DNA of 64,000 nt from Escherichia coli (GTDB taxonomy: Bacteria; Pseudomonadota; Gammaproteobacteria; Enterobacterales; Enterobacteriaceae): NCBI RefSeq assembly GCF_003334305.1, contig NZ_QOWS01000013.1. One strand, 5' to 3'. Within the stretch, counting starts at the first letter, position 1; each line of letters begins with the position of its first letter. Under the pieces are notes generated by a model. It ran no database searches, was not told the origin of the DNA, and saw nothing but the letters and a program-made list of their open reading frames with translations. The translations under genes were made by a program, and so were the position numbers. Below are positions 5,640 through 27,451 of this stretch, piece by piece.

Positions 5640-8600
5640 TTATCCTTTAAAGCAACGGCGGATCACCACAAAGAACACCGGTACGAAGAAGATTGCCAGC
5701 AACGTTGCAGAGACCATTCCTCCCATTACCCCGATACCCACAGCGTTCTGCGCGCCACTGCCGGCACCGTTACTGATAGCTAGCGGTAATACGCCGAGAA
5801 TAAAGGCGAGAGAGGTCATCAGGATAGGACGCAGACGCATACGTACTGCCATCAGTGTCGCTTCAACAACACCTTTACCCTCTTTCTCCATGAGATCTTT
5901 AGCGAACTCAACAATCAAAATAGCGTTTTTGGCCGACAAGCCAATTGTCGTTAGCAAGCCCACCATAAAGTAGACGTCATTTTTTTGATTAAAGAGTGTT
6001 GCCGCCAGTAGCACGCCGACAATCCCTAACGGCACTACCAACATAACCGAGACAGGAATTGACCAGCTTTCATAGAGTGCAGCAAGGCACAGGAAAACAA
6101 CCACAAAGGAAATTGCTACCAGAGCGGGAGCCTGGTTTCCCGATAAGCGTTCCTGATACGACATACCCGTCCAGTCATAACCAATGCCCGCAGGTAATTT
6201 TGACGCAAGGTTTTCCATCAACGCCATGGCATCGCCGGAACTGGTTCCTGGCGCGGCTTCCCCCTGAATCTCCATTGACGGCAGACCGTTGTAGCGTTCC
6301 AGTCGCGGAGAGCCATACACCCAATGTGAAGTGGTAAAGGCCGAGAATGGCACCATTTCGCCGTTGGCGCTGCGGACATAAAGTTTATCGACATCTTCTG
6401 GCAGCATACGGAATTTGGCATCCGCCTGAACATACACCTTTTTCACGCGACCACGGTCGATGAAGTCGTTAACGTAAGTCCCACCCAACGCCGTTGAAAT
6501 GGTCTGATTGATGTCAGAAAGTGAAACACCTAATGCCTGCGCCTTTTCCTGGTCAACTTCCAGTTTAAACTGCGCGGTGTCTTCCAGGCCATTAGGACGC
6601 ACGCTGACTAAGCTGGCAGGATGTTGCGCCGCCATGCCAAGCAACTGGTTACGGGCCTGGGTCAGGGCATCGTGACCCAGCCCAGCCTGATCAATTAACT
6701 CAAAGTCGAAACCCGTTGCCGTGCCCAGTTCAACAATGGCTGGCATATTGAATGGAATGACAAAACCGTCGCGGATCTTGCCCAATTCCATTTTGGCACG
6801 ATGGATTACCGCTTCCGCACTGTTTTCATCACTATTACGCTCTTCCCACGGTTTCAGACTGACGAAGGCCATACCGGCGTTTTGTGCCTGGCCGCTGAAG
6901 CTAAAGCCGTTAACCGTAAAGACACTTTCAACGTTCGCTTTCTCGTTCTTCAGATAGTAATCCGTCACTTGATCCAACACTTTTTGCGTCCGCTCTTGCG
7001 TCGCGCCAGCGGGTAACTGAATCATGGTCAGAAAGACACCCTGATCCTCTTCAGGTAAGAAGGAAGACGGAAGACGTAAAAACAACACCACCATTCCTGC
7101 AACAATCAGCGCATAGATCAGTAAATATCGTCCTGTGGAACCGAGGATTTTGCCGACGCTGTTGGTGTAGTGGTTAACGCTATGATCGAAGGTGGTATTA
7201 AACCAGCCGAAGAAACCACCCTTATTTTCGTGATGCTCAGCTGAGGTGGGTTTGAGCAGTGTTGCACATAACGCAGGGGTAAGAATCAATGCCACCAGAA
7301 CAGAAAGCGCCATTGCCGAAACGATGGTGATAGAGAACTGGCGATAAATTGCCCCAGTAGAACCGCCGAAGAATGCCATCGGAATAAATACCGCTGACAG
7401 CACCATCGCGATACCCACCAGTGCGCCCTGAATTTGCGACATCGATTTTTCCGTCGCTTCTTTTGGCGGGAGCTTATCCTCCATCATCACGCGCTCGACG
7501 TTCTCCACCACCACTATCGCATCATCGACGAGCAGCCCGATGGCAAGCACCATCCCGAACATCGTTAGTGTGTTGATGGAGTAACCAAAAGCGGCGAGGA
7601 TGGCAAACGTCCCTAATAACACCACGGGTACCGCAATGGTGGGGATCAGCGTTGCTCGCATATTCTGCAAGAACAGATACATCACCAGGAACACCAGCAT
7701 AATGGCTTCGAACAGCGTTTTTACCACTTCGTGAATAGAAAGCTGGACGAATGGCGTGGTGTCATAAGGGTAGAGAACCTTCATTCCCTGCGGGAAGAAT
7801 GGCTGTAATTCCGCCAGTTTTGCCTTAATGGCTTTCGCGGTATCGAGAGCATTCGCGCCGGTTGCCAGCTTAATCCCCAGGCCCGCCGCCGGTTTTCCGT
7901 TGATACGAGCGATAACGTTATAGTTTTCACCGCCAAGTTCAACTCGTGCGACATCTTTCAGGCGTACCACCGAGCCGTCACTGTTTACGCGCAGGGTTAC
8001 TTTGCCGAATTCTTCCGGATTTTTTAACCGCGTCTGAGCAATAATTGAGGCGTTCAACTGTTGCCCTGGTAACGCTGGCGTTCCGCCCAACTGTCCGGCA
8101 GCGATCTGATCGTTCTGTGCCTTCAACTGGTTAATCACATCAACCGGTGTCAGTTTATATTTGTTTAGCAGATCGGCGTCCAGCCAGATACGCATCGCAT
8201 ACTGTGCGCCGAAAAGCTGTACGTCACCGACGCCATTCAGACGGCTAAGCGTATCTTTAACGTTAGAGGCCACATAGTCCGAGATATCGTCCTGTGTGGT
8301 GTCTGGGTTATCAGAGACAAAGCCCGCCACCATCAAATAGCTGCTACTGGACTTTTCAACACTGATCCCCTGCTGCTGAACCTCCTGCGGCAGCAACGGC
8401 GTGGCGAGCTGGAGTTTGTTCTGCACCTGCACTTGCGCGATATCAGGATCGGTCCCGGACTGGAAGGTAAGGGTAATTGTCACGCTACCGGCGGAATCGC
8501 TGGTGGAGGACATATACATCAGGTTATCGATACCGTTCATATTCTGTTCGATAACCTGCGTCACCGTATCCTGCACGGTCTGCGCATCAGCGCCCGGATA

Positions 8601-8744
8601 GTTTGCTGAAACAGAAACCGCAGGCGGTGCAATGGTTGGATACTGAGCGACGGGTAATTGTAGGATCGCCAGTGCGCCCGCCATCATCAGAATAATGGCC
8701 AGCACCCATGCAAATATCGGTCGTCGAATAAAAAAGTTTGCCAT
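5640..8744 (-). CDS. acrF: RND multidrug efflux pump, inner-membrane transporter
   Basis: 1034-aa [26 protein letters not shown]… typical AcrB/AcrF RND transporter; downstream of acrE. Confidence 0.96.
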
Positions 8745-8755
8745 GTCAGATTACC

Positions 8756-9913
8756 TTACTTCGATGCAGTATCTGCGGGGGTATCGGTAGTGGCTTTAAC
8801 CTGCTCTCCCGGACGCGCTTTTTGCAGGCTGCTGACAATGACTTGATCGCCAGATTTCAGACCTTCGCTAATCAACCATTTATCGCCAATCGCCTGACTG
8901 GCAACGACAGGGCGCGCTTCCACCTGACTTTTATCGTTAACAATCAGCACGGTTGCATCACCACGCGGTGTGCGGCTAACGCCTTGTTGCGGGATAAGAA
9001 TGGCGTCAGGTTGGACGCCTTCATCAATCCGTGCGCGCACAAACATACCCGGCAAAAGCGTATGTTGCGGGTTAGGGAAGACGGCACGTAGGGTTATGGA
9101 GCCGGTGCTTTCATCAACGGTCACATCAGAGAATTGCAGCGTACCTTTCAGGGGATAGGTTTGACCGTTTTCCATGACCAACTCTACGTTGCTGGTGGCG
9201 TTTTCCTTATGCAAATTTCCTTGCTCTACGGATTGCTTCAGCCTCATAAAATCGTTGCTGGATTGGGTCACATCAACGTAGATAGGATCGAGCTGCTGGA
9301 CAGTCGCCAGTTCAGTCGTTTGCCCATTAGTGACAAGAGCGCCTTCGGTCACGGTCGATTTGCCGATACGTCCGCTAATTGGCGCAGTCACTTTGGTATA
9401 AGCGAGATTGATGCGAGCGCTTTCGACTGTGGCTTTTGCGGCAATCACGGCGGCATCGGCCTGGCGAGCATCAGCAATGGCCTGGTCGTACTCCTGCTGG
9501 CTGATGTATTTCGTACCCACGAGCGGAACGTAACGTTTTACCGTCAAATGCGCGATGGCGGCGGCGGCTTCACTTTTCGCCAGTTCGCCTTTCGCGCTGT
9601 CATAATTTGCCTGATAGGTCGCGGGATCGATCTGGTACAGGGACTGGCCTGCTTGTACATCGCTGCCTTCAGTGAAATTACGATTCAGTACGATCCCGCT
9701 AACCTGTGGGCGAACTTCGGCTATACGGTAAGCATTGGTGCGGCCTGGTAATTCAGTCTTAACTTCTAACGGGGCCGTTTTCACAATATGAACGGTAACC
9801 TGCGGTTCACCGACGTGAGCTTTCTCTTCTCCCTTATCGTTACAACCGGCGATTAAAGCCGCGGAGATCAGAATAAAGGAGGGCAGGAGGAAAAACCTGG
9901 CATGTTTCGTCAT
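8756..9913 (-). CDS. acrE: RND efflux periplasmic adaptor (membrane fusion) lipoprotein
   Basis: 385-aa ORF with lipobox LIAGC; AcrA-like adaptor immediately upstream of acrF. Confidence 0.95.
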   Translation of the reverse strand: MTKHARFFLLPSFILISAALIAGCNDKGEEKAHVGEPQVTVHIVKTAPLEVKTELPGRTNAYRIAEVRPQVSGIVLNRNFTEGSDVQAGQSLYQIDPATYQANYDSAKGELAKSEAAAAIAHLTVKRYVPLVGTKYISQQEYDQAIADARQADAAVIAAKATVESARINLAYTKVTAPISGRIGKSTVTEGALVTNGQTTELATVQQLDPIYVDVTQSSNDFMRLKQSVEQGNLHKENATSNVELVMENGQTYPLKGTLQFSDVTVDESTGSITLRAVFPNPQHTLLPGMFVRARIDEGVQPDAILIPQQGVSRTPRGDATVLIVNDKSQVEARPVVASQAIGDKWLISEGLKSGDQVIVSSLQKARPGEQVKATTDTPADTASK

Positions 9914-18341: not shown

Positions 18342-19318
18342 GAGTGGGTTCCGTACTCTTTGTTTAGTGTGATTGTGACAGGCGTTTCACCGCCGTCTGT
18401 AAAGCGTATGCCCCGACAGCTGTATGCATAGCGATAAATTCCAGCAGGCCGGGACGCCGGTCTATTTTGCCCCAGAGTGTCAATGTTAGACTTGACGGAC
18501 ATTGTGCAGCGATCTGCTGCTATCCTCCGGCAAAAAACAAAATATACCTTCGTTGCGCCAATGTCACCTTTTCCGCAGCGCAAAAACTGCGTCAGGGAGG
18601 ACGAGGTCGCACATTATAACGATTTCGTAGCAATTGGCAGCTAAATACTGGTCTTATCAGGGAAGATAATCAACAGCTAACATGTAAATAACCTTCAACA
18701 CCGTGTAATTTGCAACAAGCCGCACAATTCACGAAATTAGCGCCATCATCGACGGAACTTCTTATAACGTAAGGTGAAAAGCTGAAAAGCCAGCCCTGCG
18801 AAGATGAGGGGCTGCAATGAGATAATCTTCACAGACCACAAATAATGTAGGGATGCCAGGATCGCGACAAGATAGACGACATTACGCAGCGGTTGCTGGG
18901 GATTACCCAATTTTCACTGCATCGTCTGGATAGATGTGAATGCTAAAGCACGCAAAATCAACCGACTGACAATTCTCAGCATTAAATAGGTTCGAGTGGT
19001 TAATTTGTAGTCAAATAAAATCAGATTATTCACCCCATGGGACCAGAAATCAGTAACAGGTTAAGCGTAGTGTCGCCCAGGCAAAGCACCATAAACCTAA
19101 CAGGCGACGGAGGCATATCAATAATGGCTGTTTAGAGGAGTATCAATGCGCATCAATTTGTGGTCAGTCGAAATCATGACTTTCCAGTTTGGATGATGTT
19201 GTACAACTTCCTGACCAAGGTGTTCGACGAAAGCTGTCCGGCTAACCGCTTTTCCCGTTAACCGATTGAATAATGATGTCAAAATGAGTTCCCTCTCTTA
19301 TTATTCCTTGCTAAATGG

Positions 19319-20444: not shown

Positions 20445-22385
20445 ATGAGATTAACGACGAAATTTTCGGCCTTTGTTACGCTGCTCACCGGGTTAACAAT
20501 TTTTGTGACTTTGCTGGGCTGTTCGCTAAGTTTCTACAACGCAATTCAGTATAAGTTTAGTCATCGCGTTCAGGCGGTGGCGACGGCGATTGATACCCAC
20601 CTTGTGTCGAATGACTTCAGCACATTAAGGCCACAAATTACCGAATTAATGATGTCGGCAGATATCGTTCGTGTAGACCTGCTCCATGGTGATAAACAGG
20701 TTTATACCCTGGCCAGAAATGGTAGTTATCGTCCGGTTGGCTCCAGCGATCTGTTTCGCGAACTGAGTGTTCCGTTGATAAAGCATCCGGGGATGTCGCT
20801 GCGTCTGGTTTATCAGGATCCGATGGGCAACTATTTCCATTCTTTAATGACTACCGCGCCGCTCACGGGGGCGATTGGCTTTATCATTGTTATGCTCTTT
20901 CTGGCGGTACGCTGGTTACAACGGCAACTTGCCGGGCAAGAATTGCTGGAAACCCGGGCTACTCGTATCTTAAACGGTGAGCGTGGCTCTAATGTGTTGG
21001 GAACCATCTATGAATGGCCGCCCAGAACCAGCAGTGCGCTAGATACGCTGCTTCGTGAAATTCAGAACGCACGCGAACAACACAGCCGTCTTGATACGCT
21101 GATCCGCTCTTATGCCGCCCAGGACGTGAAAACCGGCCTCAATAACCGACTCTTTTTCGATAATCAGTTAGCAACGTTACTGGAAGATCAGGAGAAAGTA
21201 GGTACCCACGGGATCGTGATGATGATTCGTCTGCCGGATTTCAATATGTTGAGCGATACTTGGGGGCACAGCCAGGTTGAAGAACAGTTCTTCACTCTGA
21301 CGAATCTGCTGTCGACATTTATGATGCGCTACCCTGGCGCACTGCTGGCGCGTTACCACCGCAGTGATTTTGCTGCGCTGTTACCGCACCGGACGTTAAA
21401 AGAGGCAGAGAGCATCGCCGGTCAGTTAATCAAAGCCGTCGATACCTTGCCGAACAATAAAATGCTCGATCGCGACGATATGATCCACATTGGTATCTGC
21501 GCCTGGCGTAGTGGTCAGGATACCGAGCAGGTAATGGAACATGCAGAGTCTGCCACGCGTAATGCGGGATTGCAGGGCGGCAATAGCTGGGCTATTTACG
21601 ATGACTCGTTGCCTGAAAAAGGACGCGGTAATGTTCGCTGGCGTACGCTTATCGAGCAAATGCTCAGTCGCGGCGGCCCGCGCCTTTATCAAAAACCGGC
21701 GGTTACTCGCGAAGGTCAGGTTCATCATCGCGAACTCATGTGCCGCATCTTCGATGGTAATGAAGAGGTTAGCTCGGCGGAGTATATGCCGATGGTCTTG
21801 CAGTTTGGCTTATCGGAAGAGTATGACCGTCTGCAAATCAGCCGTCTTATTCCACTATTGCGTTACTGGCCAGAGGAAAATCTGGCGATTCAGGTTACCG
21901 TTGAGTCGCTGATTCGCCCGCGTTTTCAGCGTTGGCTGCGCGATACGTTAATGCAATGTGAAAAATCACAACGAAAACGCATAATTATTGAACTTGCAGA
22001 GGCCGATGTAGGTCAACATATCAGTCGTTTACAACCTGTTATTCGTTTAGTGAATGCTTTAGGGGTACGGGTAGCCGTCAACCAGGCTGGTTTGACGCTG
22101 GTAAGCACCAGTTGGATCAAAGAACTTAATGTTGAGTTACTCAAGCTCCATCCGGGGCTGGTCAGAAACATTGAGAAGCGAACGGAGAACCAGCTGCTGG
22201 TTCAAAGCCTGGTGGAAGCCTGCTCCGGGACCAGCACCCAAGTTTACGCCACCGGTGTGCGTTCGCGAAGCGAGTGGCAGACCCTGATTCAGCGCGGTGT
22301 TACAGGCGGGCAAGGGGATTTTTTCGCGTCCTCACAGCCACTTGATACTAACGTGAAAAAATATTCACAAAGATACTCGGTTTAA
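20445..22385 (+). CDS. csrD: CsrB/CsrC decay factor with degenerate GGDEF and EAL domains
   Basis: 646-aa ORF with N-terminal TM segments, HRSDF in place of GGDEF and ELM in place of EAL. Confidence 0.93.
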   Translation: MRLTTKFSAFVTLLTGLTIFVTLLGCSLSFYNAIQYKFSHRVQAVATAIDTHLVSNDFSTLRPQITELMMSADIVRVDLLHGDKQVYTLARNGSYRPVGSSDLFRELSVPLIKHPGMSLRLVYQDPMGNYFHSLMTTAPLTGAIGFIIVMLFLAVRWLQRQLAGQELLETRATRILNGERGSNVLGTIYEWPPRTSSALDTLLREIQNAREQHSRLDTLIRSYAAQDVKTGLNNRLFFDNQLATLLEDQEKVGTHGIVMMIRLPDFNMLSDTWGHSQVEEQFFTLTNLLSTFMMRYPGALLARYHRSDFAALLPHRTLKEAESIAGQLIKAVDTLPNNKMLDRDDMIHIGICAWRSGQDTEQVMEHAESATRNAGLQGGNSWAIYDDSLPEKGRGNVRWRTLIEQMLSRGGPRLYQKPAVTREGQVHHRELMCRIFDGNEEVSSAEYMPMVLQFGLSEEYDRLQISRLIPLLRYWPEENLAIQVTVESLIRPRFQRWLRDTLMQCEKSQRKRIIIELAEADVGQHISRLQPVIRLVNALGVRVAVNQAGLTLVSTSWIKELNVELLKLHPGLVRNIEKRTENQLLVQSLVEACSGTSTQVYATGVRSRSEWQTLIQRGVTGGQGDFFASSQPLDTNVKKYSQRYSV

Positions 22386-22563: not shown

Positions 22564-23733
<1,170 letters not shown>

Positions 23734-25398: not shown

Positions 25399-25992
25399 AT
25401 GACTTCTCTGTATTTAGCTTCCGGTTCTCCGCGTCGTCAGGAGTTACTTGCGCAACTTGGCGTGACCTTTGAACGTATTGTTACGGGCATTGAGGAGCAG
25501 CGTCAGCCGCAGGAGAGCGCGCAGCAGTATGTTGTGCGTCTGGCGCGCGAGAAAGCACAGGCGGGTGTCGCGCAAACGGCGCAGGATCTCCCGGTGCTGG
25601 GTGCGGATACTATCGTTATCCTGAATGGAGAAGTGCTGGAGAAACCGCGCGACGCAGAGCATGCGGCGCAGATGTTGCGCAAATTATCGGGTCAGACCCA
25701 TCAGGTGATGACGGCAGTGGCGTTGGCCGACAGCCAGCACATTCTCGATTGCCTGGTGGTCACCGATGTGACTTTCAGAACGTTAACAGACGAAGACATC
25801 GCGGGCTATGTCGCCAGCGGTGAACCGTTAGATAAAGCAGGTGCATACGGTATTCAGGGGCTGGGTGGCTGTTTTGTCAGGAAGATAAATGGCAGCTATC
25901 ACGCCGTAGTCGGCTTACCGCTGGTTGAAACGTATGAATTATTAAGTAATTTTAACGCACTGCGTGAGAAAAGGGATAAACATGACGGCTGA
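25399..25992 (+). CDS. yhdE: Maf-family nucleoside triphosphate pyrophosphatase
   Basis: 197-aa [28 protein letters not shown]… Maf signature. Confidence 0.95.
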
Positions 25993-27451
25993 ATTGTTAG
26001 TAAACGTAACGCCTTCGGAAACGCGAGTGGCGTATATTGATGGCGGTATTCTGCAGGAAATTCATATTGAACGTGAGGCGCGACGCGGAATAGTAGGCAA
26101 TATCTACAAGGGTCGTGTAAGTCGTGTACTTCCGGGTATGCAGGCGGCTTTTGTAGATATTGGGCTGGATAAAGCCGCGTTTCTTCATGCATCCGATATC
26201 ATGCCGCACACCGAATGTGTGGCGGGTGAAGAACAAAAGCAATTCACGGTGCGCGACATCTCGGAACTGGTTCGTCAGGGGCAAGATCTGATGGTGCAGG
26301 TGGTGAAAGATCCGCTTGGCACTAAAGGTGCGCGCCTGACCACCGATATCACGCTGCCTTCTCGCTATCTGGTGTTTATGCCAGGGGCTTCTCACGTTGG
26401 GGTTTCCCAACGTATTGAAAGCGAATCAGAACGTGAACGCCTGAAAAAAGTGGTCGCAGAGTATTGCGACGAGCAGGGCGGGTTTATCATCCGTACCGCA
26501 GCGGAAGGGGTTGGCGAGGCTGAACTGGCCTCCGATGCCGCTTATCTGAAACGCGTCTGGACCAAAGTTATGGAGCGTAAAAAACGCCCGCAGACCCGTT
26601 ATCAGCTGTACGGCGAACTGGCGCTGGCGCAGCGTGTTCTGCGTGATTTCGCCGACGCCGAACTGGACCGCATTCGCGTTGACTCACGCCTGACTTACGA
26701 AGCATTGCTGGAGTTTACCTCGGAGTACATTCCCGAGATGACCAGCAAGCTGGAGCATTACACCGGACGCCAGCCGATTTTCGATCTCTTTGATGTCGAA
26801 AACGAAATCCAGCGAGCGCTGGAACGCAAAGTAGAACTGAAATCCGGTGGTTATCTGATTATCGACCAGACCGAAGCGATGACCACCGTGGACATCAATA
26901 CCGGAGCGTTTGTCGGTCATCGCAATCTGGACGACACCATTTTCAATACCAATATTGAAGCGACGCAGGCTATCGCTCGCCAGTTACGGTTGCGTAATCT
27001 GGGTGGGATTATCATTATTGATTTCATCGATATGAATAATGAAGATCACCGCCGCCGCGTGCTGCACTCGCTGGAGCAGGCGTTGAGCAAAGACCGGGTG
27101 AAAACCAGCGTTAATGGTTTTTCGGCGCTGGGGCTGGTGGAGATGACGCGTAAACGCACCCGCGAAAGCATTGAGCACGTACTGTGTAACGAATGCCCAA
27201 CCTGCCACGGTCGCGGAACGGTGAAAACCGTGGAAACGGTATGCTATGAAATCATGCGCGAGATTGTTCGTGTCCACCATGCTTACGACTCCGACCGTTT
27301 CCTGGTCTATGCTTCTCCGGCAGTAGCTGAAGCCTTGAAAGGCGAAGAGTCACACTCGCTGGCGGAAGTGGAAATTTTCGTTGGTAAACAGGTTAAAGTA
27401 CAAATTGAACCGCTCTATAACCAGGAGCAGTTTGACGTCGTAATGATGTAA
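25982..27451 (+). CDS. rng: Ribonuclease G
   Basis: RNase E/G catalytic-domain homologue; start set at [22 protein letters not shown]… (489 aa), overlapping the yhdE 3' end. Confidence 0.96.

Follow-up and report, generated by a model that had tools for sequence, protein, structure and literature searches.

The csrD gene of Escherichia coli encodes a protein in which a GGDEF domain is followed by an EAL domain, with the signature motifs of both replaced, and the question raised by this locus is whether such a protein would still make, hydrolyse or respond to c-di-GMP, or whether its two domains have been turned to another use. The gene lies in a 64,000-nucleotide stretch of E. coli DNA, referred to here as the window. 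From the translation, the initial annotation had read HRSDF where a diguanylate cyclase would have GGDEF and ELM where a phosphodiesterase would have EAL, and had taken the protein for a catalytically inactive one that targets RNA for decay and takes no part in c-di-GMP metabolism.

The csrD gene and its surroundings

The gene and the domains of its product, which were delimited by searches against Pfam, are as follows.

20445..22385, plus strand: csrD (RNase E specificity factor CsrD, formerly yhdA), an ORF of 1941 nt encoding 646 aa plus stop
20544..20834, plus strand: GAPES4 periplasmic sensor domain, aa 34-130 (Pfam PF17157, E = 8.3e-36)
21114..21584, plus strand: degenerate GGDEF domain, aa 224-380 (Pfam PF00990, E = 6.7e-33, and alignments)
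21651..22328, plus strand: degenerate EAL domain, aa 403-628 (Pfam PF00563, E = 1.4e-37)

Two hydrophobic segments flank the GAPES4 domain and are followed by the GGDEF and then the EAL domain, and the resulting order, GAPES4-GGDEF-EAL, is that expected of the CsrD architecture. The original assignment of the gene as csrD was borne out by three lines of evidence. The DNA of the ORF matches the annotated csrD of several complete E. coli genomes with 100% identity, and a genome search returned a match of at least 95% identity in all 5426 of the 5426 complete E. coli genomes. Against the NCBIfam equivalog NF008281 (cut-off, 663), the protein reaches 975.6 bits, with residues 2-633 aligned to positions 1-632 of the 633 in the model. 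Finally, the synteny is that of K-12, with the divergent acuI (yhdH) upstream and mreB-mreC-mreD-yhdE-rng downstream. CsrD of K-12 MG1655 (YhdA, b3252) is the product of the same gene, with 646 aa, the same neighbours and the same HRSDF and ELM motifs; 16 of the 1941 nt differ between the two genes, and the sole difference between the proteins is a polymorphism at residue 60 (Thr here, Val in K-12), the codon of which (20622-20624) falls inside the poorly conserved periplasmic GAPES4 domain.

Several features of the neighbouring DNA were recorded in passing. The mreB ORF (22615-23733, plus strand) was given a TTG start at 22615 by the ORF program (372 aa), whereas the annotated start is at 22690 (347 aa); with the latter, the csrD-mreB intergenic region is 304 bp. 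Further downstream, 3.6 kb from csrD and in the same orientation, lies rng (25982-27451, plus strand), the gene for RNase G, an enzyme with sequence similarity to RNase E. The proximity of csrD and rng is probably coincidental, because no interaction of CsrD with RNase G, or with RNase III, was found in two-hybrid experiments (PMC13232886). On the other side of csrD, the interval of approximately 980 bp between accB and acuI (18342-19318) is without an annotated gene in E. coli CFSAN061769, and its K-12 counterpart holds the pseudogenes yrdF and yrdE. The acrE gene (8756-9913, minus strand) is intact in the window, its only stop being the terminal one, while the annotation of the otherwise near-identical CFSAN061769 gives it as a pseudogene interrupted by an internal stop. 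The first base of the window apparently falls within a 5S rRNA gene at the distal end of an rRNA operon, as judged from the sequence of positions 1-600 and the 5S - tRNA-Thr - 5S layout annotated in CFSAN061769, with tRNA-Thr (GGT) at 121-196; over the first ~600 nt the register differs from that of CFSAN061769, and the 386 mismatches counted in the first kb arise from this offset.

Fate of the active-site residues

The positions in CsrD that correspond to the catalytic and metal-binding motifs of active enzymes were located by two independent routes, HMMER pairwise alignment and a MAFFT alignment of the CsrD domains with DgcZ, DosC, DosP and PdeH, which were taken from the K-12 genome and are annotated there as diguanylate cyclases or c-di-GMP phosphodiesterases, together with MorA, RmcA and LapD. 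The replaced segments are listed below.

21228..21245, plus strand: RLPDFN, aa 262-267, where active cyclases have the metal-binding segment DxDxFK (alignment columns)
21357..21371, plus strand: HRSDF, aa 305-309, at the position of the active-site (A-site) motif GG(D/E)EF (HMMER and MAFFT alignments)
21732..21746, plus strand: ELMCR, aa 430-434, in place of EALxR, with E430 and R434 kept and Leu replaced by M432 (alignments)
21891..21893, plus strand: Q483, aligned with the Asn that serves as a metal ligand in active EAL domains (alignment columns)
22080..22097, plus strand: NQAGLT, aa 546-551, in place of DDFGTG, both Asp being lost (N546, Q547; alignments)
22251..22262, plus strand: TGVR, aa 603-606, where active enzymes have EGVE, with neither catalytic Glu left (T603, R606; alignments)

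In the HMMER alignments, the CsrD segment ARYHRSDFAALLP lies over ARMGGDEFTLLLP of MorA (4rnh) and ARLGGDEFIILLP of RmcA (5m3c), such that 'aryHRSDFaallp' pairs with 'armGGDEFtlllp' and 'arlGGDEFiillp', respectively; for the second motif, 'HRELMCRI' lies over 'GAEALLRW' of MorA (4rnh) and 'GAEALVRW' of RmcA (5m3c). The MAFFT columns agree: H305-R306-S307-D308-F309 occupies G-G-(D/E)-E-F, sharing its columns with GGEEF of DgcZ and GGDEF of DosC, MorA and RmcA, and E430-L431-M432-C433-R434 occupies E-A-L-x-R. Alignment with active GGDEF and EAL enzymes, proposed at the outset as the check on the reading of HRSDF and ELM, thus upheld it at aa 305-309 and 430-432, and misassignment of the motif positions was seen in neither the HMMER nor the MAFFT alignments. 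With E-values far beyond chance, the match of the motifs is one of domain homology and not a random string match. HRSDF occurs once in the protein, and a string search of full-length CsrD returned no GGDEF, GGEEF, EAL or DDFG. A further ELM at aa 67-69 was rejected as the counterpart of EAL because it belongs not to the EAL domain but to the periplasmic GAPES4 domain. The span first assigned to the two motifs, 21356-21740, ends exactly at the last base of ELM (aa 430-432; 21732-21740) and starts one base early, on the last base of the Tyr304 codon.

The changes extend well beyond the two signature motifs. Within the DxDxFK segment of the GGDEF domain, the MAFFT columns place R262 at the first Asp, P264 at the second and N267 at the Lys, and the guanine-contacting Asn is replaced by S270, while the Asp that follows it is kept as D271. 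Many cyclases, though not all, carry an inhibitory site (I-site), RxxD, upstream of the A-site. In CsrD the corresponding columns read M294/R295...A299, with RYPG (295-298) as the nearest string and no RxxD visible in them, in a register that is uncertain because CsrD has an insertion of two residues not shared by the active enzymes. In the EAL domain, besides the losses listed above, KID has become KLH, with Asp replaced by H569. The residues retained in this domain are E430, R434, the two Glu of ExxE (E516 and E519), the catalytic K567, and Q623, the Gln of the QG pair.

This inventory can be compared with a published table in which the residues of YhdA from E. coli CFT073 are given as 'NSDHERHRSDF / ELM R / ... 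/ EVEENKTQ' against a consensus of 'KNDHDRGG(D/E)EF / EALR / ... / ENEEDKEQ' (PMC3484386). The two agree except for a shift of one column at the Asn, where the table has V484 and not Q483; the Asn is lost either way (PMC3484386).

Enzyme, receptor or neither

The region of csrD running from the GGDEF active-site loop to the EAL signature accordingly belongs to domains that keep the signatures of their folds but no longer have the residues on which synthesis or hydrolysis of c-di-GMP depends, and since these are lost from both domains, CsrD is almost certainly no c-di-GMP enzyme; no observation of the analysis speaks against this. The literature takes the same position: YhdA/CsrD has been listed with HRSDF/ELM and called enzymatically inactive (PMC3484386), and CsrD has been described as being without critical catalytic residues and as apparently neither synthesizing, hydrolysing nor responding to c-di-GMP (PMC5027483). 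The residue losses and these reports together support the initial description of the protein as catalytically inactive.

A protein unable to turn c-di-GMP over may nevertheless bind it, and the degenerate EAL domain could be supposed to serve as a receptor, as do those of LapD, FimX and CsrD of Erwinia amylovora, with c-di-GMP tuning the decay of CsrB and CsrC, two small RNAs (sRNAs). Among solved structures, LapD (3pjw, E = 1.7e-32), a receptor of c-di-GMP, is indeed the closest by sequence and FimX the next, and LapD is also the second-best NCBIfam model for CsrD; the score against the LapD equivalog is, however, 167 bits against a cut-off of 1020. LapD of Pseudomonas fluorescens and FimX share with CsrD a membrane-anchored or multidomain layout and a tandem of dead GGDEF and EAL domains, and the retained residues of the CsrD EAL domain lie in its pocket. 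In LapD, which binds c-di-GMP, ExLxR nonetheless has its Leu and Arg, the Asn is present, KID has its Asp, and E(R/G)VE (as ERVE) has its two Glu, whereas CsrD has M432 for the Leu, Q483, H569, and T603 and R606 at the respective positions. The outputs differ as well, being control of a periplasmic protease by LapD and sRNA decay by CsrD.

The more telling comparison is with E. amylovora CsrD, an orthologue with the same GAPES4-GGDEF-EAL architecture, a likewise degenerate GGDEF motif (FRSDF) and the same role in RNase E-dependent decay of CsrB (PMC9276943). This protein binds c-di-GMP through its EAL motif, which reads EIL and includes Leu435, with a Kd of ~4 uM; the replacement L435M, which mimics the ELM of E. 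coli, abolished binding, and His-tagged CsrD of E. coli K-12 failed to bind c-di-GMP in pull-downs (PMC9276943). The central Leu of ExLxR is Met432 in the CsrD studied here (ELMCR), and CsrD apparently mediates no response to c-di-GMP (PMC5027483). A LapD-like receptor was therefore rejected in view of the pattern of residues and of the failure to bind published for K-12 CsrD (PMC9276943), and regulation of CsrB and CsrC decay by c-di-GMP bound to the EAL domain is regarded as very improbable. A receptor role for this particular CsrD is unlikely because the K-12 protein, from which it differs only at residue 60, does not bind the nucleotide. The EAL domain may still hold a residual ligand pocket, which is conceivable because E430, R434, E516, E519, K567 and Q623 are kept.

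How far the ELM motif itself argues for inactivity is a separate matter. PdeH, as YhjH, is among the experimentally verified active phosphodiesterases (PMC3484386), and the MAFFT columns place its E48-L49-L50 at EAL, without the Arg. In the K-12 segment retrieved for comparison, pdeH (8421-9188, minus strand) reads ELLTV at the EALxR columns and has Ala for the Asp of KID. The change of A to L is thus found in an active enzyme also, and among the enzymes compared only that of L to M is specific to CsrD. Because active PdeH carries ELL in the same columns, ELM in place of EAL is, taken alone, weak evidence of inactivity; a dead EAL domain is better shown by the loss of the Asn, of both Asp of DDFGTG and of both Glu of EGVE. 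The general point of method is that a variant signature motif does not prove inactivity and that all the residues for metal binding and catalysis need to be checked.

That one of the CsrD domains keeps weak activity as a non-canonical cyclase or phosphodiesterase might be argued from the example of PdeH and from the clear retention of both folds in the Pfam matches, but with GG(D/E)EF deprived of its two Gly and its first acidic residue, the upstream metal-binding Asp turned into R262, the five EAL-domain residues just named replaced and the protein published as enzymatically inactive (PMC3484386; PMC5027483), the chance of this is negligible. Purified CsrD has reportedly been found to convert neither GTP to c-di-GMP nor c-di-GMP to pGpG (PMC5027483).

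Conservation was assessed in 117 sequences, consisting of the query and 116 full-length homologues drawn from the best 120 matches listed, all at least 78% identical and belonging to Escherichia, Citrobacter, Salmonella, Enterobacter, Lelliottia and Intestinirhabdus, so that the figures hold for the Enterobacteriaceae only. Among these matches listed, HRSDF is present in 115 of the 117, the exceptions being one HLSDF and one HRSDY, and ELMCR in 113, the remaining four having ELLCR. ELAE and KLH show no variation across the 117 listed sequences, and the DDFGTG position reads TQAGLT or NQAGLT, with DD in 0/117. Invariant columns make up 46% of the alignment of the 117 listed sequences overall, 48% of the GGDEF domain, 54% of the EAL domain and 15% of GAPES4, the least conserved of the domains. 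Given these motif counts and fractions of invariant columns, the degenerate motifs appear, in what is a shallow sample, to be constrained at least as much as the remainder of the cytoplasmic module. In a published comparison of the wider Enterobacterales, conservation of HRSDF is confined to its Ser and Asp, and the Leu position of ExLxR is occupied by L, M or F (PMC12910134). The carriers of ELLCR are Citrobacter sp. RHB25-C09, C. tructae and metagenome sequences. Because the central Leu needed for binding in the Erwinia study is present in them, the ELLCR orthologues might be c-di-GMP-responsive variants inside the Enterobacteriaceae.

CsrD in the turnover of CsrB and CsrC

CsrD is needed for the RNase E-dependent decay of CsrB and CsrC (PMC5027483; PMC3484386; PMC12910134), and this published work on the K-12 protein sustains the remaining part of the initial reading, that the role of CsrD lies in targeting RNA for decay. 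CsrD is not itself a nuclease; it overcomes the protection afforded by CsrA, and the decay requires both RNase E and PNPase (PMC5027483). Unphosphorylated EIIA-Glc binds the EAL domain of CsrD, and decay is activated when glucose is available (PMC5027483). In two-hybrid experiments, CsrD interacted with constructs of RNase E in which residues 499-597, with the membrane-targeting sequence among them, were present (PMC13232886), and its degenerate GGDEF domain was found to contact the GGDEF domain of DgcT (PMC5635695).

In the published picture, then, CsrD is a protein of the inner membrane without which RNase E does not begin the decay of CsrB and CsrC, the sRNAs that sequester CsrA; residues 499-597, with which it makes contact in two-hybrid experiments, form the membrane-proximal region of RNase E, and the EIIA-Glc that activates it is the unphosphorylated form present when glucose is available. 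On this view the degenerate GGDEF-EAL module would have been re-used for interaction with proteins, and possibly with RNA, and for allostery.

Apart from CsrD, the only protein known to commit particular sRNAs to a programmed decay that RNase E carries out is RapZ, the adaptor that brings GlmZ to the enzyme (PMC13232886), and the two differ in several respects. RapZ has an unrelated fold, is specific in the binding of its sRNA and makes contact with RNase E at the catalytic domain, whereas CsrD needs RNase E residues 499-597 and its binding of RNA in vitro is non-specific (PMC13232886; PMC5027483). Because binding of CsrD to CsrB in vitro was non-specific and cleavage by RNase E was not stimulated (PMC5027483), the mechanism implied by the term 'specificity factor' is incomplete, with a factor or a step missing. 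One candidate for what is missing is suggested by the near-invariance of HRSDF and ELMCR in the Enterobacteriaceae and the retention of the EAL pocket residues: the old active-site pockets could have been re-used to bind a partner other than c-di-GMP, whether another nucleotide, an RNA element within the CsrA-CsrB complex, or the surface at which EIIA-Glc or RNase E makes contact. This idea is speculative and, on balance, doubtful; if true, it would supply the missing molecular step through which CsrB becomes exposed to RNase E by the action of CsrD.

For a gene as well studied as csrD of E. coli, both the observation of the altered motifs and its interpretation are already established knowledge. 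The value of the finding beyond correct annotation is small, the ligand of the pocket and the exposure of CsrB being matters that concern CsrD generally. As annotation, it keeps csrD out of the genome's tally of enzymes that make or break c-di-GMP, and it marks the gene as encoding a regulator of CsrB and CsrC turnover in the Csr carbon-storage network.
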